A DNA stretch of 64,000 nt from Vairimorpha necatrix (GCA_036630325.1 CP142732.1:186001-250000), one strand, 5' to 3'. Counted from the stretch's first letter, positions 788 through 46,415 are shown. Made by a program: numbers and translations. Notes: generated by a model from the sequence alone, not told the origin.

Positions 788-1592
788 TAACATAATCTTT
801 AGTGGCATCTGTTAACGAATTTAGGCATACTTCATTAAATCTTCTTTCGTATTCATTCTTAGTATATTTTTCTAGATACGACGCCACTTCTAATTTGGTC
901 TGAATTTCCGTAATCATCTCCTCTATTAGGTCATAATTAGTCTGTTTTATTTCTAGCACTCTTACACCCGCCGAAGAGAATAGGTTTTTTGGGTAGGCTA
1001 TACTTAAGATCTCTTCCTTTAATTTCGCGTACGTCTTAGCATCATTTCCATATTGATTTTCATAACCTTCAATTACATTCTGCAGTACTATTAGATTCTC
1101 TTCATCGTTCCATTCTAGTTTATTGCTAATGTCTTCAAATTTTCTAAACCATTTTAACATGTTGGTTTTTTCAATATATTTCACTTTTTCTAATTGTTTA
1201 ATAATTGGCTCCTTTAGGCCTTTGATTTTGATTTCAAAGCTGATCATTTCTTTGATAGATTCAGTTTTTATCCTTTTGTTTAGTTTAGGATACAGCTTGG
1301 TTAAATTTAACTTGTGGTATCCACCACTTAAGAACATGTCAAGAATATTAATATTTATTTGTTTGTTTACCGTATTGGTTATTCTTCTTGTTTCCTGTTC
1401 TTTATTCATCTCGTACCCCTGGATGGATAAAATGTTTAAATATTTATCGGAGGGAAAAGTATTGGACTTGGAGGGAAAGATGTCAAATTTGGAGGGAAAT
1501 GTTAGTAAACATATCGTATGATATTTAGGATATCATAATTAGCTATATATAATTTTAATTATCATCTACTTTTCTTATTTCGTTGAACAACA
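788..1592 (-). mobile_element. Truncated LTR element of the palindrome-PBS group (putative 5' LTR ~1313-1592 plus gag N-terminal part)
   Basis: ORF 744-1409 aligns by eye with the Gag of 29475-31841 and 44823-45374 (NILDMFL..G, WFxxFExI...W). The LTR inner end tgtggtatcc (1313) matches the LTR end at 45254. The outer boundary is inferred. Confidence 0.65.
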
Positions 1593-1744
1593 TTTTATGT
1601 AAATATTATATAGATTTAAAAATTTTTAAAGGCCTGAAAGCTGCACAATAAACGAACTTATGTCTACTATATCCAAGGATAATGCTATAAAAGATATAAA
1701 TGTTTTAATCATCTTTGATATCATGGGTTGTTTTTAATTAGTGC

Positions 1745-5766: not shown

Positions 5767-7228
5767 AGTGCAATTATTTCTTAATTGCTTATTTCTAAAG
5801 ATATTAGTTAAGTCGAGATCGATTTCTATATCAGACGTTGCGGACTACTGGCGCGCGTAAAAAAAAAAATCAAGAGTTTATTATAGAACCAAGTATTTGG
5901 GATTTATAGTAAAGTTGTTTCTGCACACATTATTTTGTTTATATTCATAATGATGTATTATTCAGAAACTATATGAGAATACCTATGAAATATATTAATC
6001 TGTTATCGAAAAAATATTAAAAAAAGCTGATGCTTGCTTTAGTTGCCATGTAATTTCTATGAATATATCTTTAAGTGGGATCTAAAATCTTTGCCATGAA
6101 ATACATGCACGAAGTTCTTTTTCACGCTAAAATATATTATAAATTATACCATCAGGTGGATTACAATACAGAGTGAAAAAAAGGTTTAAATTTCACCATC
6201 ATATTTCTTAAATTGTTATAGCTTTTAAGTTTTAATTGTGCGGTTACAATCATGAGGTTTCTTTTAATTCAAAAAACACAATTTTTTTGTACTTATATAA
6301 TCTTTAATTATTATTATCGTAGTTACTTACGCTTAAACCGAGCATTTATAATGCTCGGATATTTCTTTATATTCTTCTAATATTTTAACTCCATCTTATG
6401 GAAGAATGAAGCCAAATAAAACATTTCACTAACATGGCGACAATGACCAACGGTATAACAAATTTTCATGGTAACACGGACGAAGATATAGTTGATTGGC
6501 CAAGAGATCCTAAACTCATTGCTTAATTAGCAGATTTGGTGCAACTTATAGTGATGAAGCTGCGAGGAATAGCTCTTTCTTGGGCTTCGGAATTAATGAA
6601 AAGCCGGCAATGGAAAATAAGGGGTGATGAATTTACAAATCTTCTCAAGAAACGTTTTGTCAAGTATAATTACACGAAATCTACACTATCAAAATTCCTT
6701 ACTTCTCCTATGCTCTCATCAAGAGATAAATTCTCAGAACTATTCAAGACTAGAACTCTTATTTTAAACAAAAACTTTATGAATGTAGGAGCATTGATGC
6801 AGGTACTCAATAGCAAGTGCCCAGATACGATTAAAGCCACTCTTTTTAAAACAGCCGAAAGGCAAGAGACTGGCAACATTTCTGCCAAAGAGCAGAATAA
6901 CTATCATAGAAAGCGTACCTAGATAACTTACTGAACAGAGTTTCATTTACCTCCAAGAAAACGAACTATAAAATATTAAATAAATATAAAAGGCCCCATA
7001 AACAAGCGTGATTTTGCAAGATTCATGGGACGGGGAACATGACACAAAATTCTGTGTTACATTAAAAAAATTAAAGAATATGGGTTAAATAGAACCATCA
7101 AATAAGGAAAGAGTCAACGTAATGAAAGAATCGAGCAAGAACTGGACCAAGATAATTATATCTTTAAAAATAAATCGGATTTTATTTATTCATCGAATTC
7201 ATTGAGTCATGTATCAAACAAATTCTTT

Positions 7229-8016
7229 TTTTTTTTCTTGCAAAAAAGAGGTAGGGAGAAACCTTACATAGGGACCAGAGGGATTTGAGTGTGATCCTCA
7301 TCCAACTGGTACTGTAAAATTCTAACTCACTAAAACTCCCTCCATACACTTGCCGGCGCAGCAAGCTCCGCCGTATCCATTGGACTTTGGTTCCAGGAGA
7401 ACACTTTCCAAGATACCTCAAATCGCGTCCAGAGTGACCTCACAGCGGATATTCATAACGGGCATGGTTATCTATAACCCAAGGAGAGACATCATCGTAC
7501 TGACTCAAAGGTCCCTACAATCATCCGTATTGCACACACGGCTCCTTACATGACCACATCCCCAGCCCGGCGTTTTTATTGGGCTGCGTTGACCACCAGT
7601 CTCCCACTAGTTTCGGCCACCGTGTTACAGAATCATGTAGGATAAGGTCCACGAGAAATTCTATTGCCCTACTTCGTCTAGTTTCTTAGTTAACTCTAGG
7701 ATCCCACTCTAGAGTGCACCAGCCATGGGCTCCAACTAGGCCGTACCCATTAGATACTTTTATGTATCATTAAGTCACCAAAGGGCGATACTGCTTTTTG
7801 GCCCTGAGGTGCGTTTCTACACTAGATGCTAATCCCCTTGTGGCTGGACACACACAAGTTTCATTGAATCAACTTAATGATTACCGTGGACATTTTCATC
7901 ATCTGAGTTGTTCCAACTGCATCATAGAAAGTAGAAACAATTTTGGAGCCCCTGGGAACCGAACCCAGCCATTGCTCAATGGAAGCATAGCATTTTACCA
8001 CTGTGCTAAGGGCACC
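7229..8016 (-). mobile_element. tRNA-derived SINE (~790 bp)
   Basis: 5' head 8016-7944 is tRNA-like (A box TAGCACAGTGG, T-arm CTGGG-TTCGGTT-CCCAG, TCC in the anticodon position). GC-richer non-coding body and 3' A-tail. 14-bp TSD caaacaaattcttt (7215-7228 / 8017-8030). Confidence 0.85.
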
Positions 8017-9935
8017 CAAACAAATTCTTTATATATGCACAAATTGACAAAAAAGAAGATTATGTCTCATATAACAGGAGCCGATGTCTCGATATTACAT
8101 CAGGATATAGTTATGCCTAATATAAAAAATACATACATCATAATACGATACGATCGGCCTGTGAAACAGATATGAAATTGAAAGCAAAGTTAAAGAACAT
8201 TAAAATTGAAATCTTAGGATCCGAAATATACTTCTCTCCTCTTGTTACTGAAACAGAACCAAGATATATTATAGATGAAGCGGATGTGATAACGCAGCAT
8301 TCAGAAATTTTAATTAAAGTACTAACACACATAAAACTTGTGTCGAAAAGAATTTTAGAGAAGTTCCTAACTATTAATCAGGTAGAAGAAAACGAATTTT
8401 TAAAAAGCCAGAAAGAAATTTTGAAAAGATATCCAAAACTATTTAAAGAAGAAATTAATGCAGAACAGACTTGTCAAGAAAGTAGACATAATATAGATGT
8501 CGGAGACAGTTAACATATATACTGTAAATTATCACGAATCCCAATACACTATGAAAAGGCAATTGACGATGAAATAAATAAAAATCTTTAATTGGGCATT
8601 AACACTCATAGTAAAAGCCCGCGGAATAGCAGAATAGTGCCAGTAACAAAACCATATGGCACCTTGCGCATGTGTATAGACTACAGACCACTAAACAAGA
8701 TCACTATAAAAGATAAACATCTTATTCCCAGGATAAACGAAATTTATGATAAACTTAATAAGTCAAGTATATTTACATCATTAGATGCTACATCGGGATA
8801 CTATCAATTAGAAGTCGATTAAAAGGATAGAGAAGAAACTGCATTTTCATGAAAAACAGGCCATTATGAATTCGTAAGAATGCCATTCGGACTTTGCAAT
8901 GCTCCAACAACTTTCCAAAAAACTATGGATAGAATTTTGAGAGAATATTTGGGAGAATTTGTTATTGCGTATTAAGATGATATTATTATTTATTCAGAAA
9001 ACATTACGGAACATAAAAAGCATGTGGAACTCGTATTAAATAAAATTAAAGAGGCCAAAATCACTCTTAATTTAAAAAATGTAAATTTTATAAGACTGAG
9101 CTCAAGATACTAGAAACGTAATAACTGAAGGAAAAATAAAACCAGACCCAGAAAATATAGAGACAATAAAAAAAAATAACCTATTTTAACTAATTTAAAG
9201 GAACTTAGATTGTTCTTGGGATTAATTAATTATTGTAGAGAATTTATAAGACAATATGCTAAAAAATCAAGACCCCCTTTTTACTTATTAAAAGGGGAAA
9301 GTAAAAAAAGCTGCAAGAGGATAGAACACGATGATGATACAATCTTAGCCTTTGATCTATTAAAGAAAGAATTAACTGAAGAAGCGTCAAGAATACAGCT
9401 AGATTTTTCCAAAGAATTTATTTTGAAAACCGATGCATCTAATGCAGGAATGGGAGCAATATTGGCTCAAGTAGACGCAAATGGCACAGAGAGGATGATA
9501 TCAGCATACAATAAAAGTTTGACAAACATCAGTTGAATTATTCGGTAATAGATAAAGAACTTTTGGCCGTTGTAAAAGGAATAGAAAACTATCGACACTA
9601 TCTTGTAGGGAAAGAATTATATTAAAAACCGACCATCGTGCGCTAGTTTATTTGTGGGAATGCAAGGCCGTGACTAGAAGATTACTTAGATGGGCTATGA
9701 AACTCCAAGAATATAAGTTTAAAGTCGAATACATAAAAGGTGAAGACAACGCTGACGACGGATATTTGAGAGTTTGTAGCGTACATAAAGCAAGCGAAGA
9801 TGATATAACTATTCGAGAAATTGAAAAACAGAATATCCTGAGTGAGTATCATTTGACATTAGGACATGGTTCAAAAACAACATGAAAGCGATAATAAAGG
9901 AAAGATATTGGTAGAAGGGAGTGTATAGCGATATT

Positions 9936-11055
9936 GGATCAGTGGGATTGTTTTCCCCAAACGTGTATCAGTGGGAATTTTTCCCCCATTGGGATTGGGG
10001 GAAAAAATCCTAAATTGTAAATTTTCAAAATTAGAAAAAGAAAAAAATTATAAATTAATTTTTAATAGAGTTAATATCTTTAAGAAGCGTTCATTCCTAT
10101 TGTTAAACTTCCACACCATTTCCTCCAAAAAATCGGACCTTTTGCTTGTCAAGACACCTTTTCTTTTTTTTATTTCACACTTTATATATTATTAAAGGAC
10201 TCAACAGCTTGAGTATTTGTACCTGTCGCCTTGTTTACAAATTCTTTTTTGTGGCAAACTGAAGAGTGTACATATCCTAGAGAACCTAAACTGCAATAAG
10301 ATTTATGCTCATCTGTCCAAATTATGCTTCCCTCTTGGACATTGTCACGGACAATGGGTATTATTGTCGAGGCCTTTTCATTCTCTATTACACAAGCATA
10401 CGCTCGGGTAATCATTGTATCGTGTTCTACAATACACAATGCATCTGTTTTATTTGAGAGTGACCTTCCCCTGTGACTTTTGGCTTTGTAGTTTAACATT
10501 GTCTCGTCGATTTGCACGACCTTGCCTGGCCCTCCCAATTTGTCGCGCCTACTATCTAGCCTTCTACAGTAATCTAAGAACTTTAAAATAATTTTTTTAT
10601 AACTCTTGGTGTCAATTTGCATCTGCTCTATTATTGAGTGCTGAGTCTGGTTGGTTGACCATTTAATTAATACCTTTCTTATTGTAATAAATGTCAAATT
10701 AAACCCCTGAAAAAAAGCTACCCTTGCGAATAGAGACCTGCTTTTTATAACAAGTGCAACGAGTGTTCATACATACCCAAATAATTTGGCACTTAATTTT
10801 GAAATAATTCTTTTTAACTAACAAATTATTGCAAATTTCGCAAGTTAAGCCACTAGCTAATAGGTTAGAATACATCAGAAATTCAACTAATTCCTGATCA
10901 TTCATCCTAACTAACTCGGTCTCGAACGAATCTAAACTCATAATAAGGGTTTAAAAAAATAAAAATAAAAGTAAAAAAATTTGAAAGGATTTTTTCCCCC
11001 AAATGTATAACAGTGGGATTTTTTCCCCCACTGGGGGAAAAAATCCCACTGATCC
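9936..11055 (-). mobile_element. Merlin (ISXO2/IS1595-like) DNA transposon, frameshifted transposase
   Basis: TIR ggatcagtgggat. 8-bp TSD gcgatatt. ORFs 10699-10941 (Cys-rich N-terminus) and 10182-10697 (VQIDET, WTDE, NTQAVE). Confidence 0.93.
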
Positions 11056-11111
11056 GCGATATTGGTAAATATTACAACAAATGTAAAATATGTTTAAAGG
11101 CGGGTGGCGAG

Positions 11112-13109
11112 TGTCCCGTATAGACGGGACTTTGCTATATTTAAAATAGCTTTCTAAAATATTGTTAATATTAATAACTTTATTGATGGTGTTTCTATTC
11201 CTCTGATGTTCCATACTCTTCACAGACAGACTTTCTTTTATATTTTATTTTTAATTTATTATTTCTTGTCAACACTAAACACAAACATTGGCGTACTTAC
11301 GAATGTAGTAACGACCATCCAACTTTCGTTTGTTTGTTTGTGTGACTCATCATTACCCGCCGTTTAAGATGTTTGACGGCCGATGGTTTTAACAGTTGTC
11401 CATGTGATGTAGTCATGTACATCACATTCTGCCCTCTCCTAAAGCTTTAAATTTTTTAAAGATACCACTTCAGTCTTATATGTTCCTGACCAACCTTTAT
11501 GTTTAGATATTTCGTCCGGCGGCTCTACTATTGTATTGTTTATAACACTACTTAACACTAATTGCTTCTTTGAGTGTTTATATTTTGTAATGTTTCTTTC
11601 ATCTTGTTTTTTACCTTATGCGCCTTCATATATTTCATTTTATCACGGTATTTGATTTTTATTAATTTAATATCTCGATTTCTTTTACATTCATCATTTT
11701 TATTTTCCTTTTCTTTATTTTTTATCTTATTGTTAAGTTTTTGGTCAATATCTATGTTTCTTTTAATATTTTTATCTTTTACTTTAAATATATTTGTTTC
11801 AACTACCTTCTCGCGTAGTTTCTCATTAATAAGCGTGTTCGCTTTTATTTCATCATTTGCTGATGTTTCGTGTTTAATTTTAACTTCATTCAATTTGTTC
11901 TTATTTATCAATTCTTTCTTTGATAAGTCATTATTCTCGACTTTATCTTTTGTTTCTTTAATTTCCTTCATCATGTATAGCTTTACTGGAACATCCTCTT
12001 TGACTTTTCGATGTTGCGATGTTTTCCTTAGCTGTTCGGAAATATTATTTTTTATCGTAAAGCATTCATTTGAATCGTGCGTAGTATTTTTGTGTAAACT
12101 GCACCATTTACTATTCGTATAGTTATCGTTTTGATTCCTAAATCGTTCTCGATCCATGTTAATTTGTCTTTGTTTGAGACCTCGTCTCTTACCTTCTAAT
12201 ATAAGATATTCTTCTACTGATTCTAGATATGCAACGATATCTTCAATTTTTTTTCCAATTCTAAAATTTTTAATCTAGTTGAAAATCCTAAGCCCATAAA
12301 GAAACTTTCTCTTAGTTTTCTTTCATATAGCTTTCTGGTTAAACCTTCAATTCTGCTATATTGGTCAATTAAATCTTTTAATTCTGTTAAATATTCTTTG
12401 ATATATTTGAACTGTGTCTGCTTGCATTCAATTAATTTCAGTTGTACCATTTCTGAACTCATTTTTTTAGTTAATTTTTTTTTTATAAATATTTTTATTT
12501 CTTTTAATTCTGATAAAGAAAATACTGGTTGTAACATTGGGTCTTTAATGAGCTCTCCTAAAGCTATTTTCTGTTTCTTAATATCCCAATTCTTATGTTT
12601 ACTTATTTGGTTGAATTCTTCAAACCAATGTTCTAATTCAGCAAAATCATACTCTCTGATGTCTGCTATAATGTCTAAGTGTTTTTCCACTTCTAAATCG
12701 ATCTCCTTGATCGTGTATTTAAATTTTAATCCTTCTCTGGATTTTTTTTTTATTTTTTCCTGCAATACAAGTTGCTCTTTGAAATCAAATTTGTCCTGTA
12801 TAGACGGGACTTTGCTATATTTAAAATAGCTTTCTAAAATATTGTTAATATTAATAACTTTATTGATGGTGTTTCTATTCCTCTGATGTTCCATACTCTT
12901 CACAGACAGACTTTCTTTTATATTTTATTTTTAATTTATTATTTCTTGTCAACACTAAACACAAACATTGGCGTACTTACGAATGTAGTAACGACCATCC
13001 AACTTTCGTTTGTTTGTTTGTTTGTGGGACTCATCATTACCTGCGTTTAAGATGTTTGACAGCTGATGGTTTTGACAGTTGTCCATGTGAGGAAGTCATG
13101 TACAACACA
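11112..13109 (-). mobile_element. Gag-only non-autonomous LTR element (palindrome-PBS group)
   Basis: LTRs 11112-11426 and 12792-13109. TSD gcgag. PPT GGAGAGGGCAGAA. gag ORFs 12223-12903 and 11558-12157 (WCSLHKNTTHDSNEC). Only the last codons resembling the integrase end (KNLKL*) are kept. Confidence 0.9.
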
Positions 13110-15786: not shown

Positions 15787-16130
15787 TGTGATGTACATTA
15801 CTACATCACATGAACAGATGTCAAATATGCCATCTGTCACTAATGTCCAAAGACACGTCAAGCATTTCAAGTGACCCGCCAAGTTGAGTCACACAAACAA
15901 ACAAACGAAAGTTGATGGCTGTTACTACATTCGTAAGTACTCCAATGTTTGTGTTTAGTGTTGACAACAAATAATAAATTAAAAATAAACTATAAAAGAA
16001 AGTCTGTCTGTGAAGGGTATGGAATATATGGAGTATAAGAGAAATAGTAAAATCATCAAAAAAACAATATTAAATTATAACATTCTAGAAAGCAATTACA
16101 AAAATAGCAAAGTTTTTTTTATACAGGACA
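15787..16130 (+). repeat. Solo LTR related to the 11112-13109 element
   Basis: tgtgatgtac...atacaggaca, clearly similar to those LTRs. TSD gatac on both sides. Confidence 0.9.
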
Positions 16131-17317: not shown

Positions 17318-17351
17318 AAAAATTTTATTTATATTTTACATGCTTATTTAC

Positions 17352-18397: not shown

Positions 18398-18406
18398 TCA
18401 TCATCA

Positions 18407-29304: not shown

Positions 29305-32121
29305 TGTCATGTCCTCAAAACCATGACATCTGTGTTTTACTGTGTTAAAACTTTAATCAGTAAAACACTGCCCCGAACGAATAGTCTAAGGCGGTGATCT
29401 CTAACGATCGGACATGAAACGTTATGTTTCATAAATAAATATAAATAGTCCAAAAAAGTTAGAAGACACCGAGCATGAAGAGTAACTTTAATAACAAATC
29501 AAATAAAAAGAAATATAATACAAATATTTTAGAATTGTATTTAAAAAACGGAGATATTACTCCGGTTCATGTCATTTTGAATTCAAAGACATTAAATGAA
29601 CAAAACGAAAAACGAAATAACGAAGATGACTATATACAAGTCAAAATCAAAGTTCCAGACTCGGACCTGGAATTTACGAAGAAATTAAAAATAATAAAAA
29701 ACATCGAAAAATTCGATTTCATTCCTTGGTTTAAGGAATTTGAAGAAATAGCCACACAGAACAAATGGAATGCTGAACAAGGCATCATGATACTACGAAA
29801 TTTAATTACTGATCGACGCCTAGAAGCGGATATTTTCATTACAGATGCAGCAACAACCAAAAGAAACTTAATTAAACATATTTTTGAGCAAGATGCTAAA
29901 GAAATGTTGCAAGAAGCCTTTAAGGTAAAACAAATAGATTTTCTTTTTATAGAAAACTATTATGAAAAGATTTACAACAAGATAAGTATCTATAGCGCTT
30001 ATTACGAAATAAGCAAATCGGAATTTAACAGACATTTAAGCGAATGCTTTTATCAAGGGTTAGGAAGAAACTCTACGTTTGAAATAATAAAACATAACTT
30101 AGGCGAGAACGTCTTAAATGCTTATAATCACCTAAAAAATATTGAGAAAATGATTCGAAAGAAAGCAGAAACTAAGAAAATAAACAAGGTGTCTAATGAC
30201 GAGCCAGTATATCAAGAAAGAGAAGGATCATACAGTAAAAAGTTTTCAAACAAGACGAATAACCCAAGATCTTCGTATATAAATAAATGGTGTTCTATAC
30301 ACAAAAACACTAGCCACGACACCAAAGACTGTTATTACAATAAAGACCGACAAAATGAAAATAAGAAGAAAGAAACAAGAGAAAATCTTAAGATAATCAA
30401 AGAACCAATAAAAGTAATAAATGGAATTGAATTAGAAGGTTCAATTGAAAAGAAAGAAACCAGATTTTTAATCGATACTACAGGTGCCACAAGAAATTTT
30501 ATTAGTAATAAAAAGATCAAAGAATTGAAATTATCACCCATTGAAGATGTGGAAATCCAAACAAAATTTGCCAATGAGCAAAAAGAAATAACTAACAAAA
30601 CAGTACTTGTTAGAATAACATTAAAGAATCTAATGAAAGAAAAATACGTAAGATTTTATATATTAAAAAACAACAGCGATGATGTAATATTAGGAAATGA
30701 ATTCCTAGTCGCAAATGAAGCAATAGTAAATTACAAAGAAGGAACAATTTATGTAGGAAGTGAGAGATTGAAATTTCTACATAACGACGAATGTTGCGAA
30801 TTAGACGCAATGTTATTTGAGAAAATGAATGTGTGCAAACAGGTAGATGAATGTGCATTAAAAACAGAAAATAAAAAGAACTTTAAAAAAGATGAAAAAG
30901 AAAGAATTTATATTGACAGAAAAATGACTAAAGAATTTATTAAATTTGTCCACGAATTGTCGGGACATTGCGGGCAAGTAATCATGTATTTAAACTTAAA
31001 AAGATGGTACAACATCATAAACATTAGAACAGTTATCCGCAAGATATGCAATCAGTGTATCGTATGTAAAGAAAACAAGGATTTTAAACAACAGAATCTA
31101 GAAAGAAATAAAATAGATAGCAGTGCACCATTTGAAATAATAAGCACAGATATTTTTGGTCTTTTTCTCCTGGAGGAGTTTGAGGGCGACTCTCTAAACC
31201 ATAAGGGTTATATCTTGACCATAACCGATGTGTTTTCGAGATTCACGAGAATTTGGTTTGGTGAGAAGTTTAGGAGTGAGGAAGTTATTATGTGTTTAAA
31301 CGAATGGAGTGATGATTTTGCGAAGCCTAAAGCGCTAATTTCGGACAATGGTCCGCAATATAAAAGTAAAAAAATGAAAGATTATACTAATAAAATACAA
31401 ATCGAACATCGGCTAATACCGATATATTACCCTCAAAGCAATGGAATTTCAGAACGTATAAATCAAACAATTGCAGAAGTGCTGAGAATGAATATAGGAA
31501 AGAATATAAAACACATTATTATGCAAATTGAACATCGGATAAATAATAATGTTAATACCACACTGGGAATTGCGCCTAGAGAAGCAATTTATAAGAATAG
31601 TTTTTATGACATTGAGAAAAGGGTTAATGTGCCATTTTTGCGAAACATACCTGCAGTTGAAGTGAACTATAAGCGACGTATCGCAGTAAATGACATTGTA
31701 TACTTAAAAAATTATAGCAATAATAAACTCGAGCGGAAATACTATGGGCCGTTTAAAGTTATGGAAATCGGTAAGAAAGGAAGTTGGGTTCGACTTAAAG
31801 ACATGCCCAACTGGGTTCATATTAAACAGTTGAAGCTGTAGGGGGGCAGACTGTCATGTCCTCAAAACCATGACATCTGTGTTTTACTGTGTTAAAACTT
31901 TAATCAGTAAAACACTGCCCCGAACGAATAGTCTAAGGCGGTGATCTCTAACGATCGGACATGAAACGTTATGTTTCATAAATAAATATAAATAGTCCAA
32001 AAAAGTTAGAAGACACCGAGCATGAAGAGTAACTTTAATAACAAATCAAATAAAAAGAAATATAATACAAATATTTTAGAATTGTATTTAAAAAACGGAG
32101 ATATTACTCCGGTTCATGTCA
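29305..32121 (+). mobile_element. RT-less LTR element (Gag-PR-IN), palindrome-PBS group
   Basis: 270-bp LTRs 29305-29574 and 31852-32121, identical by eye. TSD gtctt. PPT AGGGGGGCAGAC. One intact ORF. Confidence 0.96.
29475..31841 (+). CDS. 788-aa Gag / aspartic protease-like / integrase polyprotein lacking RT and RNase H
   Basis: WCSIHKNTSHDTKDC knuckle, LIDTTGA...ILG protease motifs, HHCC zinc finger, D-D35-E core (STD, SDNG, ISE), GPF motif. No YxDD or TDAS motif. Confidence 0.92.
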   Translation: MKSNFNNKSNKKKYNTNILELYLKNGDITPVHVILNSKTLNEQNEKRNNEDDYIQVKIKVPDSDLEFTKKLKIIKNIEKFDFIPWFKEFEEIATQNKWNAEQGIMILRNLITDRRLEADIFITDAATTKRNLIKHIFEQDAKEMLQEAFKVKQIDFLFIENYYEKIYNKISIYSAYYEISKSEFNRHLSECFYQGLGRNSTFEIIKHNLGENVLNAYNHLKNIEKMIRKKAETKKINKVSNDEPVYQEREGSYSKKFSNKTNNPRSSYINKWCSIHKNTSHDTKDCYYNKDRQNENKKKETRENLKIIKEPIKVINGIELEGSIEKKETRFLIDTTGATRNFISNKKIKELKLSPIEDVEIQTKFANEQKEITNKTVLVRITLKNLMKEKYVRFYILKNNSDDVILGNEFLVANEAIVNYKEGTIYVGSERLKFLHNDECCELDAMLFEKMNVCKQVDECALKTENKKNFKKDEKERIYIDRKMTKEFIKFVHELSGHCGQVIMYLNLKRWYNIINIRTVIRKICNQCIVCKENKDFKQQNLERNKIDSSAPFEIISTDIFGLFLLEEFEGDSLNHKGYILTITDVFSRFTRIWFGEKFRSEEVIMCLNEWSDDFAKPKALISDNGPQYKSKKMKDYTNKIQIEHRLIPIYYPQSNGISERINQTIAEVLRMNIGKNIKHIIMQIEHRINNNVNTTLGIAPREAIYKNSFYDIEKRVNVPFLRNIPAVEVNYKRRIAVNDIVYLKNYSNNKLERKYYGPFKVMEIGKKGSWVRLKDMPNWVHIKQLKL

Positions 32122-35100
32122 GTCTTCAATATCATAGTTGCCATTTCTTCCAACTTTAATAATTCTAAAAAAAACCATCGAACCTGTTATCTAGTTTATT
32201 TAAACGTTCATTTGGTTGTTTCCTTCTTCTTACATAATCGTTTAGCTTTAAGTCTTCAGGATCTTGTCCTGGTTTCACTTTGTCCATTTCCGTCAGTCTA
32301 ATTTCTCGTTCTAAGTTTAATAATGTATCTCGAAATTGATTTAGTCGCTCAATAATTAAGTTATTATCTTCTTCAACCTCTGCTAATAACTTATTCTCAT
32401 TAACAACCCGATTAGGTGCTCTACCAAATAATAATTCATATGGAGAATGTCCCGTTGATCTTCTTGGAGATATTCTATATGCGTATACGGCATATGGTAA
32501 GTACTCATCCCATTTTTTCCAACGCCCGTCCACTATCTTTGCTAGTTTTCCTATCAGAGTCTGATTTGTTCTCTCGGCTAATCCATTACATTTAGGATTG
32601 TAGCTCGAGGTAAACGATTTCTTGGTGCTCATCATGTTGCACACTCTTTTAACCAGTGAATTGGTAAATTCAGTTCCTTGGTCTGACAACAGTTCTTTTG
32701 GAGGGCCATATTGTAAAAATATTTTGTTTACAAGAAATTCAGCTATTACGTTCGCCGATTTTGTTTTTATCGCCTCAGCTTCAAACCATCTCGTTATATA
32801 ATCCGTTGCAATAATTATAAATTTATTGCCGTTTTCCGATTTTGGGAGAGGTCCAACGAGATCGATTCCAACTTTGTCCAGTGGATTAGTTAAAGGGAGT
32901 CTTATTTTCTGTAAATTTTTTACGCCTCGTGAGAATTTATTGCAAACAGAACATGATTTTAAAATATCTTTTACTTCATTATACATCCCTTTCCAGATTA
33001 AGTCCTTTCTCAATAAGGTATACGTGGCATCCACACCACCGTGTCCACAGTCATTATGACTTCTCATAATAGCTTCCAATTTAGCTTCCTCTGAAATTTT
33101 CTTGTTCTCTCTTCAGCGACATTCATCACTATCCTACTCATTGCGTCTGCGATCACGTTGATCTTTCCTGGTAGGTATTCGATCTTATAATTATATTCTT
33201 GAAGAGTGAGTATCCACCTCATTAACCTTCCTGATGTTTCTTTCAAATTTAACAGCCATTTCAAGGCCTGATTATCAGTTCTTATGGTAAATTCTCTAGT
33301 AAGGTATACTCGAAGCTTTTTAACCGCCCAAATTACTGCCAAACACTCTTTTTTGGTCACTGTGTAATTAATTTCTGCAGCTGATAGCTTCCGCGATATA
33401 CAGATTACAGGTATTAATTTATTTTCGTAGCCATCCAATTGAGATAATACGGCTCCTATTGCCAAGTTCGATGCATCAGTGTCGATATAAAACCTTTTAT
33501 CAAAGTTAGGTAAAAGTAATCCCGACGCCTTTCTTATTTCTGCTTTCATTATCTCAAAAGCTTCTGATGCTTCTTCGCTTAGAACAAACTTAGTTTTTTC
33601 CTTTCCTTTTAGTAATTCATATAGGGGTAGCATCTTTTGTGCATAATCCTTGATAAACCTATTGAAGAATGCCGAAAATCCGTTAAATGCCCGGATATCC
33701 TTCTTTGTCTGCGGTGACTTCCATTCCATAGTTTTCATTTTTTGTTGTAACGGTATTTCTACTTTACCGTTAATTACCTCATAACCTAGGAATTCGACTT
33801 TTCCTGCACAAACTTACATTTTTTTTTTATTTAACTTAAATCCTATTTTTCTGATAATTTCGAGAATCTGTCTCAGATGTATTAAGTGAGATTTGTGATC
33901 TTTTGAAAATACTAGAATATCATCCAAATAAACCATGACGCATTTATGCATATACTATTTAAAATATTTATTCATTATTCTTTGAAATGTAAAGGGAGCG
34001 TTAATAAGCCCAAACGGCATCTTTTTCCATTGAAAAACTCCTTCTCTAGTGTAAAATGCTGTTTTAAATCGGTCCTCCTTTTTAACTGTTACTTGATTGT
34101 AAGCTGCTTCTACATCCATTACACTGAAAATTCTTGCGCCTTGCAATTGATCCAAAGTTTCGTCGATACGCGGGATCGGATATTCGCATGGTATAGTAAT
34201 TGTATTTAGTCTTCTAAAGTCGATGCAAAATCTCAACCCACCATCCTTTTTTTTACTAGTACCACTGGTGACACATATGGGCTTTGGCTTTCTTCAATCA
34301 AACCTTGAGTTAGGAATTTCTGAACCTCTGCCCTAATTGTCTCATGTTCTTCCGGAGATCGTTTATACTTAGGACATATAGACATTTTGGAACCCTCCAT
34401 CAGCTCGATTGCATGTTCTATATCAATATTTATCTGTTTATTTTCATCCTGAAACACGCCTCCAAATTCAGATATCAAGTCTTTAAATTCTTGTTTGGTA
34501 TTGTCTTCGTCGCAATCAATGTCTTCTAATAATTCTTGAATATCAGTACAGGATTCTATTACTTCGTTTTCAAACTTAGCTTCCATTACAATATTTTTGT
34601 TTGTGATTTTATCTTTTTGCTTCTTCTGAGCAAGATATGAAAATAGATTTAGTCTTCGAATCTCCTCAATGCCTAACAACATCGATTCCTCCATATCTTC
34701 GACTACTAAGAAATTAAAACCTTTCGGCTGTTTTTCACCTTTCTTTTTTATGTTTAGGTAACATCTACCTACAATCTGACGCCCTCCCTTTAAGCCCTTA
34801 ATTTCTCCGGCTTCTTTCTGAATGGGAGCGTCGAGTTGTACCGCTACTGCTTTTTTAATTACCGACACTGTAGCTCCTGTGTCTAAAAGTGCATTCACAA
34901 TATTATCGCCATAGACCAACTCAATTCTTGGTCTATTATCTTCCTGATTCTTCACCTTAGCTGAAATACTAAGGACTTTCCTCATTCCGTCAGATATTGA
35001 TCGCCCTGTCGACTCTGCGACTACTTTGTCAACGGGTTGATCTCTCTTTGCAAATTCTTTTCTTGGAAATGTAGTAATGCTTTGCTTTCTTCCGAAATAA

Positions 35101-36335
35101 CGTAATTTTTTATTCATCGGCTTTTCGTTTTCTTCTAGGTAGGCTTCAAGTTCGTCCCAATTTTCACACGTGTTGAGATGAAATCTAAAATGTTCATCCT
35201 CTACTAACTCCACGATTCTTTCCTTTGCTCTTGTATATAAAAGTTCATTTTCTTCTCCGTAAATTCGTAAACTATAGTAATAAGAGATTACATCTGAGGT
35301 CTTGGGTCCTTCCTAGATACATCTCCAAAAGAACTCTGCGTTCTCTGTAACTTTTACTTCCTTGACGAATCTCTTTTTAAAGCCTTTAATAAATTTTTTA
35401 TAGGTTTCCAATTTCTTTTCGTGGGCTTTAAACCACAGGCTTGCTTTTCCTTTCAGCATCCTCGTAATCTTATGGTGCAGATAATTTGCAGCCCATTTTG
35501 TCTCAAATGCCAGAAATTGATCTAGAAAGGCCTTGGGATCCTCATTCTCATAACCATTGAATTCACTCAGTTTGTCAGTTAGTGCTAAATTCTTCAATCC
35601 TTCCATTACCAGGCCAAGGGAATCTTTTTCTGAAATCTCTCCGTTGTCGCCACTTGTTGTCGAGTTAGTCTCGAGACAATACTTAGTGGGCTTACTCAAA
35701 GAAGATGAATTATTAATAAAGCGTTTATTACTCATTGTGCCCTTCTTGGGGCAATTTGCTTAAATACTTTTTAGCAAATATTAATTAAACATATTTCCAT
35801 TTTGGAGGGAAATAAAAAGAACACAGAAATTGTAGAAATAGGTGTAAGACACATATTTACATCATAAATGTTTGTACACCAAAAAGTGTCAAACATTTAA
35901 TTTATTCCAAACGCATGTCAAAAGTCTTTGGGTTTAGGGATTCTAATGGTCAGCGTGGGTTTACCGCATGACACTATCAATTTACTAATAATAAAAAAAA
36001 CATGGAATTTTCGATAGAATTTTGACGGACAATGGGTTAGAGTTCAACAATAAACTAGTCCTATTACTTCAAAATAAATATAATATTAGTGGGAATTTGG
36101 GTCCCCATACCATCACCAAACAACAGGAGCAGTGGAACGAGAAAACCAGACTCTAAAAAACGTAATAAGAAGGTTGTCTTGCTTTGGACATTTAAACTGG
36201 AGTCTTTTTTAGGGGACGCTACACTAGTGTTAATATGTCATTCAACCGCACAATAGGAACTTCTCCATTCATAATGAAGCATGGACACCAACTTATGACA
36301 GAAATAAATAAGAGATTAAATATCAAGCCGAAATG

Positions 36336-41349: not shown

Positions 41350-44300
41350 TGTCACATTTAGTTGGTTGAACCAGTTAGTAGAGGGAACCCTAAAAAAATA
41401 TTAAAAAAAGACCCCCAGGGGAATCGAACTTGGGACTTCTCGAAGGAATACAATCACAATGAACGACTTTTTTGAGACGGTTCAAAATTTGTCCAAATTA
41501 TATTATGGGGTATATTTCGAGTAATTTTATATAAATTTGGAGGAAAAGAAATAAAAAAATAAAATAAACAACTTTTTTAAAAAAATTATTCGTTATCAAG
41601 CAAGCTTAGTTCTCTAGTGTAAATTTTTTTCTATAATAACCAATGGATCAGCTTCTTTAGATAATTTTACTTTATTAAATTGAAGTATATTCATTAAAAT
41701 ATATACATCGACATCCAAATGATCGTATAGAGGAAGCCTTCCAGTACTATGATTATTGTCTAAATATGGTCTTATAAGAACCCTATCTCCCAATTTATAT
41801 TCATAGAAGTCATTTCTCCACATACTTCTTTCAATCATTCTATTAGCAGCATTTTGAGTATTAAACCGTGCAGATTTGTGGTAAATTTCATTTAAAAAAA
41901 GATTTTCATTGCTTAAAGCATATAGTTCTTCGTAATTTACGACGTTATTTTCGTCAAATAAAATTCTTCTCTTCGTTCTTCTTCCTCATTTTCAACTTCG
42001 TTATTATTTGCAACCGAATCTAGAATATCAGTAAATCTAGATTCTTGCATTATGTCTTTAATGGGCTTACCAAACATTAAACTAAATATAGTTTGTTTAG
42101 TTGTTGAATGCCTTAAGTTGTTATATGCCCAGGTAACTTCTTGGCGTACTATTGTCCATTGCCTAAGATATTCTTCGACCTCAGAGTAGATGCAATCATC
42201 ATTTATTTGTTTGATTGGATCGTTCAATTTGTCCTTGTATCTGTGGTATCCCGGGCTAACTTTGCCGGGGAGTAAATACCACTCTATATTGTTTTTAATA
42301 TAAACGTTTTTTGCTATAATTTGTAAAAGCTTCTTTAAAATCCGATCCTCTCATCTATCTCCTTTTTTTTTGTACCCTTCCTTTCTGAGATTTTATTTAT
42401 AGTAAATATTTTTCTAGAAAATTCTATGATAGTTTTGACAGGAAGGGAAATAAAGTAAATGTTGAAGACTAACAGTCTACAACATCCTGCCCCCTCTCAA
42501 AGCTTTAACTGTTTCCTGTGAAACCATCCTGTAAGTTCATTTAATTTGTACCATAATCCATTCTTCTCCTTCTGATTCACCCTGTATGGACCAGTAAATT
42601 TTTTATCGAGTTTATTTGTAGAGAAGTTCCTCACATAAACTAAGTCGTCGACTTTAAGCTCATAATTATCTGTTTTCTTTTTGATCTGTCTTTTTCATAT
42701 TATATCAATATCTATTTTTTCTTTTATCCTAAAAGGGTCATAAAAATTTATTCCTGTTTGTAAAGACATAGGTGATGCTTTTATCCTTCTATGCCAATTT
42801 TCGTTTAGCTTATGTTCAATTATGCCTGTTAATTCCTTCAAAGATCTTCTTTTATAAATTCGTCTTGTTTCTCCAATAGTTCTATTTATTCGTTCACTAA
42901 TGCCGTTAGAACTGGGGCTGTAAATGGGCGCCTTGATGTGTTTAATAGTATTCTTATCAAAGTATTCTAAAATGTCTTTTGAAATATATTGGCTTCCATT
43001 ATCGCTTATAAAGATTTCTGGTTTCCGATATTTTTTATTCCATAATTCAATGCAATTAATGATTTCTTTTGAATCTGCTCTGTAAACAAATCTAATTTGA
43101 GATGTTCTTGAATAAACATCTGTTGTGGTAATAATATATATTTTCCTCGGTTTCTCCGAGATCTCTAAATCCCTGGCTAATATAGGCCCATAAATATCGC
43201 TACTAATAGTGTGAAACTTTCTTTAGAAGTGATTGCTAACCCTTTACATTTCACCGCTTGATGTTTATTTTCCTTGCATTTTACACAATTTTTTATTACT
43301 TCATTAATATTCATTTTAATTTTAGGGATATAAAAATACTTTCTAATATTGTTGTACATCACACTACTTCCAGTGTGTCCTGATATATCGTGTATGTATT
43401 CTAACAAGAATTTTATCTTATTTCCTGGGATATCGATCCTCGATCTAGATGCAGATTTTTTATTTATATTTCTATGTTTTTCAAACCTCGCGTTGCCTAC
43501 ACATTCTTTTATCGTTTTTATATATTCATCTTCGTTATTGTTGTTTTCTTCCGTTATAGAACACGTTCTCGATAAATAATCTGCTATATTGTTTTCTGCC
43601 CCCTTGATACTTGAAATACTGCAATTATATCCATTTAAAAGCAATTTCCATAGTTCTATGCGTGACGATATCTTTCTATTATTGTAGATACAATTCAAAT
43701 TATCCGTTTTGATTTCAATATGATAACTTTTGATTACATTCTCATAGAATTGTAATGCTTTTATAATTGCAAATAATTCCTTTTCTACTATAGAGTAATT
43801 ACATTCCGTAGGCGACAGTTTCTTGCTATAGTGTCCTAACACACCATGTTCTTGAAATAGGACTGCCCCTATGCCTAAATCGCTTGCATCTGCTTGCAGG
43901 TAAAATACTTTTGTGAAATCTGGGAAATCTAGAGTTGCCTTTTCATTAAAAGGTCTCTTTACCTCTTCAATTATTTCTTGTTCGTGTTCTGTCCATTTGA
44001 ACTTATCATATTTTAAAAGTTCACTGACTCTTGCTATTTTAGAACTCAGGTTTGGTACGAATACTCTGTACCAGTTTAAAACACACAACAATCGCTGTAA
44101 ATGCTTCTTCTTTGTGGATTTAATATCAAAAATGTTGTTTTTCAAATATTCTTTATCTGCTTTAATCGTCTCTTTACTTATAAAATACCCCAATACCTTA
44201 ATCGCTTTCATATATAATTGAATCTTAGAGAATCCAAATAATTTGTATAATTCAAGATAGTACTTCTGCTAAGATTGCCGACAGGTCTTATATCATCTTT

Positions 44301-46415
44301 ATTCAGTTTCTCCAATTCTCTTTTAATTAGTAATTTACCATTATTTTCAAGACTCATATATTTAATAGTTAAAACTATATTTTTAGAAGATCTGTATAGT
44401 TCAGGATTTATTTCTTTTCAAATTAAATTGCAAATTACTTACTAAACCATTGTAACCGGCATTTCTTGGATCTTCAAATATAAATCTCAATCTTTCAATG
44501 TCAAGCTTCTCATTACTTTCAGGAATTAAAGTGTTAAGTTCATTGTTTTCAGTTATGTCTAAAGTAAGAATTTCCCCTAGTTCAACATTATCTTTTAACA
44601 GTAGTTCAAATTGGCTGGTTAGGGTCATGATGTTGTGTCATTTTTATGAATTGTTAATTTCGAGATTTCCTCTTTCATTGTCCTTAGCTTGGTCAAGTAT
44701 GCTTCAATGTTATGAGCATCAAGACTTTCAATTAGGAGTCTCCTAGTTTTTTCTCCTAGGCCTCTCTTAAAACATTCCCATAACTTCTATTATATTCGTC
44801 TTTATTAATCTTGTTAGCTATACTATAATTTAATGTACTTGTTTATATAGTCATAATATTCTCTTATTGTTACAAAATCTATTTGTTTGACTGTATAGAT
44901 TTTATCCATCCACCTCTCTGTTTTTTCCGCAAAATTCTTTCCTAAAATTCTATCTGTAACTTTAGCTAGTTCTCCATTAAAAATATTATCGTCTAGTGAC
45001 TTGTCAGGAATCAAGTCTCCTAAAATGAGCTCGTATTGCTCAGATGTCCAATTATTTCTCCTACATATTTTTTCGAATGTTTCAAACCATTCGCACATAT
45101 CAAATCTTTGATTGTTCTCGATCATGTTAAGTTCCTATTCAATTTTCATTTCGGTTCCTGGAACAGTAAAATTTATTTTAACTATTTTTTTATTTATTTC
45201 GGTTTCTAATATTTGAGCTAGTATTCTACTTACTCTCGCTCTTAAATTCAAGTTGTGGTATCCCGGGCTAACTTTGCCGGTGAGTAAATACCACTCTATA
45301 ATGTTTTTAATATAAACATTTTTATTATAATTTGTAAAAGCTTCTTTAGCTTCTTTAAAATCCGATCCTCTCATCTATCTCCTTTTTTTTTGTACCCTTC
45401 CTTTCTAAGATTTTATTTATAGTAAATTTTTTTCTAGAAAATTTTATGATAGTTTTGACAGAGAGGGAAATAAAGTAAATGTTAAAGACTAACAGTCTAC
45501 AACAGTATCCAAGGACATCTAGCTCTTCCTCTTACACGTCTTATTTCATACTTTACACATAAATTCACGATATATTGATTAACAAATTCTCTACCGTTGT
45601 CGGTATGAAGTATAAAACAAAATCCAAACGTATTGAATAGTGCTTCAAAGGCCTCACGCACACTAATGTCAGTTTTGTCACGCAATGGAATCGTCCAACA
45701 GAACTTGGCAAATGGATTCACTACGTTAAGTAACCATTTATATCTATCATTGAGTTCGTGATACAATCGAAAATCAATCAAATCAGCAATATCCCTTTCT
45801 CTAGGAAATTTTGAAATGATTGGTCTAATAACTGGTCAAGTTATTAGGTTTCTTCTTGCTTGACAAATATCACAATTTTTCAAAACTCTCAGTACTTCGT
45901 TTTGAGTAACGTCGTATACTTTTGATTGTAACAATGGATACAATCTGCCCCGCCCAGGATGTCCATTAGAAACATGAATCAGTTTGATGAAATCCGATTT
46001 GAAACGCTGCTCATTGGTTGTAAAGAATCTCAATGATCTATATTGATCTACTTTAAACCTCACAGTTAGTTCAAAGTTTCCATTGTTGTTTTTTTCAAAC
46101 AACATGAAACGTTCAGCTTTTCTTATAAAATTTTTACGATCAACTTTGTCCAACAACGTTGGTGGCAGCTGACCATATAATAAAAAATTGTAAACTTCTT
46201 GTCTATATCATTGTTCATTTATATTCTCATACCCCCACAAAACCAAAAATTATTTACTATAAATTGAAGGATAATTTTACTGTAATTTCTTAATAATATT
46301 TTTTTTCCTTTCTAAGTAAATTTTGTTCTTCTTCGAGAGGTCCTAAGTTCGATCCCCACAGAGCTCGTTTTTTAGGGTTCCCTCTACTAACTGGTTTCCT
46401 CTACTAACTGCGACA
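41350..46415 (-). mobile_element. Ginger-like (integrase-type) DNA transposon interrupted by an LTR element
   Basis: ~100-bp imperfect TIRs TGTC...GACA. Integrase fragments 45836-46156 (HHCC) and 45497-45781 (TDNGREF), continuing QGQIERSNQT below 42241. Confidence 0.82.
42242..45504 (-). mobile_element. LTR element of the palindrome-PBS group: gag, RT C-terminal part/RNase H, integrase; no protease or RT core seen
   Basis: LTRs 42242-42484 and 45254-45504. TSD gtatc. PPT GAGAGGGGGCAGGA. ORF 43177-44211 (ADASDLGIGAVL, HHCC). Confidence 0.92.

Follow-up and report, generated by a model that had tools for sequence, protein, structure and literature searches.

The stretch of Vairimorpha necatrix DNA analysed here (64,000 nucleotides, GCA_036630325.1 CP142732.1:186001-250000; hereafter the window) carries four Ty3/gypsy-like LTR elements, E1 to E4, whose Gag proteins share only 25-30% identity. 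E2, E3 and E4 display the direct TG..CA LTRs, 5-bp target site duplications (TSDs) and G-rich PPTs before the 3' LTR that are expected of Ty3/gypsy elements (Table 1), and their LTR ends were set by comparison of the two LTR copies of each element. For E1, of which only the 5' part, with no second LTR, lies inside the window, the LTR end was taken from 11 nt common to E1 and E4 (GGATACCACAA), giving a 1-nt spacer. The E1 Gag continues past a frameshift in an ORF at 2-808 that contains a CCHC knuckle, its 3' part lying beyond the window edge, and the internal ORF of E4 is interrupted by many stops. Full-length relatives (P0004, P0007 and P0065) have the order protease, RT, RNase H, integrase by Pfam, and the closest solved structure match of the pol region is yeast Ty3 (7q5b, 4ol8; RT-RNase H E 3.8e-56), which together place the elements in gypsy rather than in the Ty1/copia GalEa clade. 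E3 lacks RT-RNase H, the deletion corresponding to residues 476-932 of P0004; because its LTRs are identical although RT is deleted, its cis signals, including the palindrome described below, must have worked recently in trans. All of these elements are extremely compact, with the gag ATG in the LTR and a single ORF running up to a stop directly before the PPT, so that the palindrome site just inside the 5' LTR is necessarily coding.

Table 1. Features of the four elements and of the contrasting primer-binding sites (positions in the window)
Feature	Position	Strand	Remarks
E1 Gag ORF, first frame	744..1409	(-)	ATG 1407-1409, within LTR
E1 palindrome GTTAAATTTAAC	1300..1311	(-)	6/6 pairs; codons (AA)G TTA AAT TTA AC(C)
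E1 spacer	1312..1312	(-)	1 nt (A), from inferred LTR end to palindrome
E1 U5 hairpin	1314..1327	(-)	4-bp stem, 6-nt loop; ends 1 nt before LTR end
E2 5' LTR (TG..CA)	12792..13109	(-)	contains gag ATG 12892-12894
E2 palindrome TTTGATTTCAAA	12778..12789	(-)	5/6 pairs, central T.T; spacer AA 12790-12791; codons TTT GAT TTC AAA
E2 3' LTR	11112..11426	(-)	96% to E2 5' LTR
E2 PPT GGAGAGGGCAGAA	11427-11439
E2 TSD CTCGC	13110-13114 and 11107-11111
E3 5' LTR	29305..29574	(+)	270 nt; 100% identical to E3 3' LTR
E3 U5 hairpin	29549-29564
E3 palindrome TTTGAATTCAAA	29576..29587	(+)	6/6 pairs; spacer T 29575
E3 single ORF Gag-PR-IN	29475..31841	(+)	788 aa; gag ATG 29475, within 5' LTR
E3 3' LTR	31852..32121	(+)
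E3 PPT AGGGGGGCAGAC	31840-31851		overlaps stop codon
E3 TSD GTCTT	29300-29304 and 32122-32126
E4 5' LTR	45254..45504	(-)	gag ATG 45372-45374
E4 U5 hairpin	45255-45294
E4 palindrome CTTGAATTTAAG	45241..45252	(-)	5/6 pairs plus one G.U; spacer A 45253
E4 3' LTR	42242..42484	(-)	92% to 5' LTR
E4 PPT GAGAGGGGGCAGGA	42485-42498
E4 TSD GATAC	45505-45509 and 42237-42241
TGG-type PBS (AG TGGCGACAACGG)	35641..35654	(-)	gypsy element hosting nested E3; LTRs 28888-29205, 35655-35973
TGG-type PBS TGGCGACAATGAC	6435..6447	(+)	gypsy element hosting nested E2; LTR copies end 6434, 14045
TGG-type PBS TGGCGACAACGACA	62392..62405	(-)	third gypsy element; LTR copies 60174-60340, about 62406-62574

In all four elements the terminal CA of the 5' LTR is followed, after a spacer of 1-2 nt, by a 12-nt near-palindrome that occupies the position of the PBS, at a distance of about 100-125 nt downstream from the gag ATG. 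A first-pass annotation of this DNA had described these 12-mers in four LTR retrotransposons without TGG, and its coordinates, strands and placement hold in every case (with the E1 LTR end inferred as above), as do its readings of pair 1/12 (G-C, T-A, T-A and C-G from E1 to E4), of pair 4/9 (A-T, G-C, G-C, G-U) and of the encoded residues (LNL, FDF, LNS, LNL). The central mismatch of E2 and the G.U pair of E4 both fall in decayed copies. No TGG occurs in the 40 nt after the 5' LTR of any of E1-E4 (0/4), which are likewise without the hallmark of tRNA-primed elements, a TGG with about 8-18 nt of complement to a tRNA 3' end near the 5' LTR; in contrast, a TGGCGACAA-type PBS is found in 3/3 of the window's other gypsy elements whose 5' junction is visible, as previously annotated.

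A site complementary to a primer supplied by the host, whether a tRNA, a piece of one or another small RNA, would be in keeping with how LTR elements normally work, and copia is described as using internal tRNA regions (PMC3592414). Such a primer is nonetheless very unlikely here, because the four 12-mers differ from one another and the cores deduced across the family differ much more, so that many different host RNAs would be required, each of them palindromic; a content of 1-2 G/C per 12 nt also seems unlike that of tRNA stems. One shared tRNA as primer is ruled out by the varying centre of the palindrome. A single, doubtful tRNA is present within the window.

As background, perfect 12-nt palindromes start at 0.11% of window positions and those with at least 5/6 pairs at 1.0%. 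E2 reads the site in frame +0, and E1, E3 and E4 read it in frame +2, one frame apart. Given the encoded amino acids and local codon usage, the probability of a pairing score at least as high as that observed is 0.035, 0.128, 0.006 and 0.113 for E1 to E4, and with Fisher's combined p of 0.0013 over the four elements, codon choice at the site favours pairing. The four nucleotide sequences by themselves give only modest support for covariation: 23/24 cells are paired and two pairs have changed on both sides, with 25/500 shuffles scoring as high.

Further evidence comes from relatives of the Gag protein, whose collection the first-pass annotation had suggested. A profile of the window's Gag sequences matched 261 cluster representatives at E <= 1e-3, 150 of them listed, and the named matches come from four species, of Nosema, Vairimorpha, Anncaliia and Pseudoloma. 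The test set comprised 154 proteins from among the matches listed and the window, of which 76, three of them the window's own, carry a residue in the alignment column of the site; real nucleotides come from the four copies only, and codons elsewhere in this family-wide test are deduced from peptides. Across this set, a perfect 12-nt palindrome could be encoded exactly at the site in 65/76 rows (63/73 external), 63 of them in one frame and two (FEFK, IDIN) in the other, as compared to 5.7% of 15,311 positions elsewhere in these proteins, where the highest figure for any one position was 19%. Shuffling of columns yielded 21.6 +/- 3.1 compatible rows, and never more than 33 in 2000 shuffles, and the result is similar when distinct pentapeptides are counted (50/61 compatible versus 15.5 +/- 2.8 shuffled, maximum 25). 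The excess over control positions and shuffles identifies the palindrome as a conserved nucleic-acid element.

The conserved property is symmetry rather than sequence. The site is diverse, with 46 distinct tetrapeptides and at least 17 compatible tripeptide types, and its residues change together: Leu is accompanied three residues on by an A-initial codon, Met or Ile by a T-initial codon (MNSF, MSSW, MISL, INLS) and Val by a C-initial codon (VNLL, VNLP, VSSR), while the central partners are Asn, Ser, Ile or Thr with Ser or Leu, His with Ala, and Tyr or Leu with Thr. Each of the six pairs can be satisfied in 88-97% of rows versus a background of 36-75%. The LTR-terminal CA is also compatible in 68/76 rows versus a 34% background, from which it follows that the LTR junction probably lies in the same place across the Gag family. 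In a tree-aware test, underpowered with its 7 and 6 independent pairs, changes of the partner followed the prediction in 2.4 versus 0.1 and 3.9 versus 0.0 of the pairs, with median p of 0.5 and 0.125, respectively. The claim that symmetry is kept while the sequence changes is borne out by the two frames, the biased codons and the covariation of peptides across the family.

These data bear on two further explanations. The peptides most often present at the site are LNS and LNL, and related sequences are not independent, so a conserved Leu-Asn-Ser peptide might be palindromic simply by chance through its A/T-rich codons; this protein-level account is extremely unlikely in light of the two reading frames, the codon bias, the observed excess over shuffled rows and the near absence from the central codon (1/76 rows) of Lys, which these proteins contain more often than any other kind of residue. 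Alternatively, the site might be bound as DNA, in provirus or cDNA, by a dimeric protein encoded by the element or the host, since 10-12 bp of perfect dyad symmetry is typical of the sites of such proteins and the palindrome lies shortly downstream of a gag ATG that is itself in the LTR. We regard this as quite improbable, because bases that vary while symmetry is kept are the signature of base pairing and not of base-specific protein contacts, and because such binding would leave the constant distance from the LTR end unexplained.

How the palindrome might pair can be judged from the LTRs and from predicted folds. The best complement of the 12-mer in the LTRs of E1-E4 reaches 10/12 including G.U, at no common position; this match is in E3 only, 42 nt upstream, with none better in E1, E2 or E4, extending to all four elements the earlier report of no good complement and leaving a fold-back of the Tf1 type unsupported. 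A second arm with at least 10/12 pairs is likewise absent within 60 nt downstream in 4/4 elements. Isolated monomer 12-mers are computed to be unstructured (0.0 kcal/mol), as against -7.1 to -10.6 kcal/mol for the RNA homodimer duplexes. In 4/4 contexts RNAfold folds the palindrome into a 4-bp mini-hairpin, with a U5 hairpin just upstream, and in none of these contexts does a flanking stem present the palindrome in an apical loop. The mini-hairpin, and the precedent of the GalEa Conserved Hairpin Site as described in PMC5445492, would fit an intramolecular structure that marks initiation for some other primer or for protein priming. This is an improbable reading given the lack of a stable monomer fold and of a second arm 12-60 nt downstream, and given that the two central pairs, which a hairpin would place in its loop, hold in 88% and 97% of rows; with all six pairs kept, a full duplex fits better than would a hairpin whose loop is free.

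We therefore consider the 12-mer to be a cis-acting nucleic-acid element that replaces the tRNA PBS in a microsporidian Ty3/gypsy clade, and the explanation that seems most likely to us, with a confidence that falls a little short of even, is self-priming by two RNAs, whereby two genomic RNAs pair through the palindrome and one serves as primer on the other. Two such packaged RNAs would form a 12-bp antiparallel duplex between their palindromes, probably with help from the zinc knuckle of Gag. A cut in one strand, immediately 3' of its palindrome and presumably made, as in Tf1, by the RNase H of the element, would then leave a new 3'-OH facing the partner's first PBS base, and extension through the 1-2 nt spacer and U5-R would yield minus-strand strong-stop DNA. 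Since both partners are copies of one RNA, each family could alter its palindrome only by paired substitutions, which is the pattern observed. The tRNA-independent priming put forward in the first-pass annotation is thus partly supported: a palindrome at the PBS position, without TGG, conserved and covarying across the family, and without a complement in the LTR, is what the elements contain, and from this we infer the RNA-RNA dimer, the cleavage and the priming.

Several considerations weigh against self-priming. An A/U-rich duplex of 12 bp is weak, a cut 3' of the palindrome strips the PBS from the cut partner RNA, and the long 5' RNA fragment needs trimming before plus-strand transfer; we know of no precedent for either the loss of a PBS by cutting or the trimming of such a fragment. 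The palindrome might instead serve only in dimer linkage or packaging, like the retroviral DIS or the Ty1 PAL, with something else as primer. This is possible, if rather doubtful: self-complementary 5' motifs are described as accepted dimerisation signals in retroviruses and as candidates in Ty1 (PMC3592414), and the conservation of all six pairs and the computed stability of the homodimer agree with such a role, but the elements offer no other PBS candidate, whether a TGG or an LTR complement, and the palindrome is not in a hairpin loop as in the classical DIS. A pure dimerisation site would need neither the fixed distance of 1-2 nt from the LTR end (4/4) nor the joint relation of CA and reading frame in 68/76 rows.

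Among known systems, the closest precedent is a palindromic site that fungal GalEa copia elements carry, the Conserved Hairpin Site (CHS; PMC5445492), so that the idea of a palindrome in place of a PBS is not wholly new. By their published description, GalEa elements similarly have no tRNA-type PBS and a conserved short palindrome directly after the 5' LTR, which varies by paired substitutions and finds no complement either within U5 or at the 5' end of the RNA, together with a single large ORF, TG..CA LTRs and 5-bp TSDs. They are, however, copia elements of Pezizomycotina, whereas those described here are gypsy elements of microsporidia and fall outside GalEa copia. The CHS palindrome is given as 10 bp that include the last A of the LTR, with a complementary second 9-mer 12-41 bp later that forms a hairpin; in E1-E4 the palindrome is 12 nt long, excludes the last A of the LTR, abuts the LTR by way of the 1-2 nt spacer, lies inside gag and lacks a downstream second arm.

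Self-priming is itself established for the Tf1/sushi group, reported to include Tf1, Tf2, Maggy, Skippy, Cft-1 and Boty (PMC6934838, PMC5445492). As those sources describe them, these too are Ty3/gypsy elements without a tRNA PBS, in which a duplex of about 11-12 nt is formed with the element's own RNA as primer, as proposed here, and the 3'-OH is assumed to come from cleavage by RNase H. The Tf1 PBS is non-palindromic and pairs perfectly in cis with the first 11 nt or so of the transcript, a match that is absent over the LTR sequence of E1-E4; with no LTR complement and a self-complementary site, pairing here would be in trans.

Self-complementary motifs in the 5' part of genomic RNA are also described for the retroviral DIS, for Ty1, whose PAL motifs lie in coding gag sequence (PMC3592414), and for MMTV and HIV-2, which have palindromes inside the PBS itself, those of MMTV having been found dispensable for dimerisation (PMC8096270). 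All of these elements also possess a normal tRNA PBS, and the classical DIS is a 6-nt palindrome in a hairpin loop; E1-E4 have neither an apical-loop palindrome nor a separate PBS. Yeast Ty3 shares the PR-RT-RNase H-IN order but is described as using initiator tRNA-Met and a bipartite PBS (PMC3592414). Set beside tRNA priming and the Tf1-type fold-back, mutual priming of co-packaged RNAs through a family-specific palindrome may tentatively be proposed as a third mode for LTR elements, a claim that we hold as possible rather than probable. If true, dimerisation, primer choice and self-recognition of the family would be combined in one 12-nt signal, and the same principle may explain the palindromic site of the fungal GalEa copia elements.

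Each of the four Gag-related Ty3/gypsy-like LTR elements of the window, designated E1 to E4, carries a 12-nt near-palindrome at the position usually held by the primer-binding site (PBS), separated from the terminal CA of the 5' LTR by 1 nt in E1, E3 and E4 and by 2 nt in E2. The first-pass annotation had placed these four 12-mers where a tRNA PBS would be expected, and the observation is confirmed: all four are present at the positions tabulated here, they form 6/6, 5/6, 6/6 and 5/6 pairs plus one G.U in E1 to E4, respectively, and TGG occurs within 40 nt after the LTR in 0/4. Across the window, a perfect 12-nt palindrome starts at 0.11% of positions, and one with at least 5/6 pairs at 1.0%. 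In contrast, TGGCGACAA[CT]G follows the CA by 0-2 nt in all three of the other gypsy elements whose 5' junction can be seen, and the common PBS start TGGCGACAA implies that they use the same tRNA. E2 and E3 are each inserted in one of these three TGG-type elements; within the host of E2, ARAGORN calls a tRNA-Met(CAT) of atypical-looking sequence that may be a false call. Because the Gags of E1 to E4 are only 24-30% identical in pairwise comparison, simple retention of the palindrome by descent is unlikely.

With about 31% G+C, the window is A/T-rich and crowded with nested LTR elements. The best protein relatives of these four elements are named Nosema granulosis and Vairimorpha necatrix, which points to a microsporidian source of this type. 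The ends of the three complete elements, E2, E3 and E4, were defined by self-comparison of the window and inspection of the ends; their LTRs begin with TG and end with CA, and a G-rich polypurine tract adjoins the 3' LTR in each. E1 extends past the left window edge, and its LTR end was inferred from 11 nt in common with E4. The gag ATG lies within the LTR in 4/4 elements, approximately 100-125 nt upstream of the LTR end, and in E2, E3 and E4 the stop codon of the reading frame immediately precedes the polypurine tract. Since a non-coding leader is absent, any PBS substitute must be coding. E3 consists of Gag-PR-IN with RT-RNase H deleted, E2 is deleted more heavily, and the reading frame of E4 is full of stops; full-length relatives have the order Gag-PR-RT-RNase H-IN, and their closest solved structure is that of Ty3.

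Coordinates in the window of the palindrome-bearing elements and of associated features
Feature	Position	Strand	Identity	Detail
E1 12-mer	1300-1311	-
E1 U5 hairpin	1314-1327
E1 U3 repeats	1440-1500			+ strand GGAGGGAAA x3
E2 LTRs	11112-11426 / 12792-13109	-	96%	TSD CTCGC
E2 12-mer	12778-12789	-
E2 U5 hairpin	12793-12810
E2 stop-codon near-palindrome	11437-11448	-
E3 LTRs	29305-29574 / 31852-32121	+	100%	TSD GTCTT
E3 12-mer	29576-29587	+
E3 U5 hairpin	29549-29564
E4 LTRs	42242-42484 / 45254-45504	-	92%	TSD GATAC
E4 12-mer	45241-45252	-
E4 U5 hairpin	45255-45294
E4 stop-codon near-palindrome	42496-42507	-
E4 copy similar to E1 repeat	45440-45470
TGG-type host of E2	6319-14045		95%	LTR copies end at 6434 and 14045
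tRNA-Met(CAT) call	7944-8016	-
TGG-type host of E3	28888-35973		99.7%	LTRs 28888-29205 / 35655-35973
E2-like LTR copies	15784-16130, 17349-17640, 19068-19300		83-87% to E2 LTR
Repeat of ~1 kb around E4	41555-45874 vs 48496-49555		~75%	E4 removed
Unit of ~530 bp, x3	17875-18937, 19997-20537		~80%	unclassified
Inverted repeat of 1.1 kb	27077-28175 vs 55196-56277		92%	unclassified

Several further features accompany these elements. A hairpin in U5 is present in each; in E1, E2 and E4 it extends to just before the terminal CA, and in E3 it stops 10 nt short of the LTR end. Its stems differ in sequence among the four, and a 6-7 bp version occurs in related solo LTRs near 17600 and 19100. The U3 of E1 contains three spaced copies of TTTCCCTCC on the sense strand, ahead of an A/T-rich box and the ATG, and E4 has one similar copy; these repeats may represent a promoter motif. 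The three E2-like LTR copies retain the gag start, have no palindrome after the CA, and resemble solo or 3' LTRs from an E2-like family that has diversified. E4 lies within a repeat of about 1 kb that, minus E4, matches a second copy 7 kb away; the two copies could be an ancient LTR pair or some other repeat. In E2 and E4, a second near-palindrome spans the stop codon before the polypurine tract and encodes Leu-Lys-Leu-stop; it is weaker in E3, and as a family feature it was rejected, the C-termini of 24 long relatives having LK[LF] only in the E3-like clade.

The 12-mer reads TTT GAT TTC AAA in the register of E2 and lies one base off in E1, E3 and E4, with site peptides FDFK in the former and LN[LS] in the latter. 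Counted directly in the four DNA sequences, 23 of 24 cells are paired and two pairs have changed on both sides, although for four sequences this covariation count is weak, being reached by 25 of 500 shuffles. When the amino acids were held fixed and synonymous codons were resampled by local usage, the probability of a score as good as that observed was 0.035, 0.128, 0.006 and 0.113 for E1 to E4, respectively (combined p 0.0013). The use of two reading frames and the resampling result thus point, within the window, to a constraint on nucleotides. Such a constraint could also act on DNA, through a protein binding a symmetric site, but this reading is decidedly improbable.

A wider test was made with a profile of the N-terminal halves of the window Gags, searched against 1.84 billion cluster representatives. 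The profile matched 261 proteins at E <= 1e-3, and species named among the matches are Nosema granulosis, Vairimorpha necatrix, Anncaliia algerae and Pseudoloma neurophilia. With 150 of the 261 matches listed, 154 proteins were aligned to the profile; 76 have a residue in the column of E3 Leu35, three of them from the window itself, and the remaining 78 begin only after the site. A row was counted as compatible if any synonymous codon choice would give a perfect 12-nt palindrome at the site in either of the two window frames. On this measure, which rests on codons inferred from peptides in related rows and not on DNA, 65 of the 76 rows (63 of 73 external) are compatible among the matches listed, as against 21.6 +/- 3.1 after within-column residue shuffling (maximum 33 in 2000). 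The existence of a conserved, covarying palindrome in place of the PBS, as first proposed for the window, is on these comparisons of sequence well supported. Distinct pentapeptides behave likewise (50/61 compatible versus 15.5 +/- 2.8 shuffled, maximum 25), and elsewhere in these proteins compatibility is 5.7% over 15,311 positions, the next best single position reaching 19%. Compatible rows fall in the frame of E1, E3 and E4 in 63 cases and in that of E2 in two (FEFK, IDIN); among the 11 incompatible rows, three appear by eye to be aligned off by 1-2 residues (ILIS, TLIS, DRMI), and FDFK of E2 itself reaches 5/6. That coding constraint or chance produced the site is hardly credible against these figures.

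The residues themselves covary in the manner of base pairs. For the outer pair, the residue three positions after Leu has an A-initial codon; after Met or Ile it has a T-initial one (Phe, Trp, Leu or Ser), and after Val a C-initial one (Leu, Pro or Arg). For the central pair, Ser or Leu accompanies a central Asn, Ser, Ile or Thr, whereas Ala accompanies His, and Thr accompanies Tyr or Leu. The A-initial codons whose last two bases pair are AAT, AGC, ATA and ACG, encoding Asn, Ser, Ile and Thr, and Lys occupies the central codon in 1/76 rows. Each of the six pairs is satisfiable in 88-97% of rows, versus a background of 36-75%. Residues preceding the site permit the CA of the LTR in 68/76 rows versus 34% background, and, judged from these peptides, the LTR end is probably at the same place throughout the family. 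On a FastTree phylogeny of the Gag domain from which the site columns were removed, the site tripeptide changes at least 40 times; an independent-pairs test with 7 and 6 usable pairs gave the predicted direction, the partner being as predicted in 2.4 versus 0.1 and 3.9 versus 0.0, and did not reach significance (median p 0.5 and 0.125).

To our knowledge, LTR elements have only two established priming solutions, a host tRNA and the Tf1 fold-back of the element's own 5' end. One host tRNA is excluded because the 12-mers differ between families yet stay symmetric, and a host RNA of any kind as primer is highly improbable, since 12-mers varying by family would call for an implausible number of different palindromic host RNAs. 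A 12-nt partner sought in every LTR was never better than 10/12 with G.U allowed, and the best windows lie at no common place; without a good LTR complement, Tf1-type fold-back is not supported, in a search that covered LTR sequence as distinct from a mapped transcript 5' end. A second complementary arm is absent within 60 nt downstream of the palindrome in E1 to E4, and without it a GalEa-type hairpin is likewise not supported. In context, the 12-mers are predicted to fold as 4-bp mini-hairpins, as an intramolecular initiation structure might; that reading is improbable, and the fact that the two central pairs are conserved speaks for a complete duplex between two molecules. As isolated RNAs, the 12-mers are predicted to be unfolded as monomers and to pair as homodimers, with computed duplex energies of -7.1 to -10.6 kcal/mol.

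Collectively, the palindrome very probably acts in cis, through base pairing, at the position of priming. The mechanism suggested by the first-pass annotation, tRNA-independent priming through paired genomic RNAs, can be elaborated as follows. On the simplest reading, the palindromes of two packaged genomic RNAs would pair with each other, and cleavage of one RNA where the duplex ends on its 3' side would leave a 3'-OH facing the first PBS base of the other; this end would then be extended through the spacer and U5-R. The model would need the long 5' RNA fragment to be trimmed before plus-strand transfer and the PBS of the cut molecule to be replaced. RNA pairing of this kind would account for four observations: the palindrome keeps a fixed distance from the LTR, no other PBS is present, substitutions have to come in pairs, and deleted copies mobilised in trans, such as E3 with its identical LTRs, still carry the site. 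As a whole, from pairing through cleavage to self-priming, the mechanism is plausible, at slightly less than an even chance. A duplex between two RNAs would also suit a dimerisation or packaging signal, with something else serving as primer, a reading that leaves the lack of any other PBS to be explained and seems unlikely.

The start of reverse transcription is a defining step of every retroelement. Here, a covarying palindrome at the priming position marks a whole Ty3/gypsy clade, extending over at least four microsporidian genera and hundreds of protein clusters; this palindrome lies within gag and persists in two reading frames. The motif [HY]-x-x-L-N-S illustrates how a cis signal moulds protein sequence where genomes are very compact. 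The role of a palindromic 'PBS', a question raised in 2017 for fungal GalEa elements, is now directly testable, and a natural covariation series is available for the design of compensatory mutants. Annotation is affected as well: LTR finders that rely on a PBS will overlook or misread palindrome-bearing elements.

DNA of related elements, sought in metagenome, genome and viral contigs, was limited to three gypsy elements of one metagenome (L001-L003), which were rejected as relatives: apart from the Gag zinc-knuckle motif KWCSIHK, in common with the E3 clade, their Gag and pol show no relationship (24-25% identity). Among the papers whose full text was searched, none describes this palindromic site in microsporidian elements, and a survey of microsporidian transposable elements mentions no PBS, tRNA or polypurine (PMC4202319). 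The closest precedent is the site of the fungal GalEa copia elements, which, according to PMC5445492, lack a PBS and have a 9-bp sequence that is palindromic with the last A of the LTR, a complementary 9-mer 12-41 bp after the first sequence, and, in the view of its authors, no known priming model that fitted. Other papers catalogue Tf1-type self-priming elements (PMC6934838), summarise priming diversity and the Ty1 PAL motifs (PMC3592414), and describe palindromes within the MMTV PBS as dispensable for dimerisation, with mention of an HIV-2 PBS palindrome (PMC8096270). The present case differs from GalEa, Tf1-type elements, Ty1 and MMTV/HIV-2 in its combination of traits: a gypsy element has a solitary 12-nt palindrome, set off from the LTR by a 1-2 nt spacer and read within gag in two frames, and offers a rich covariation series.
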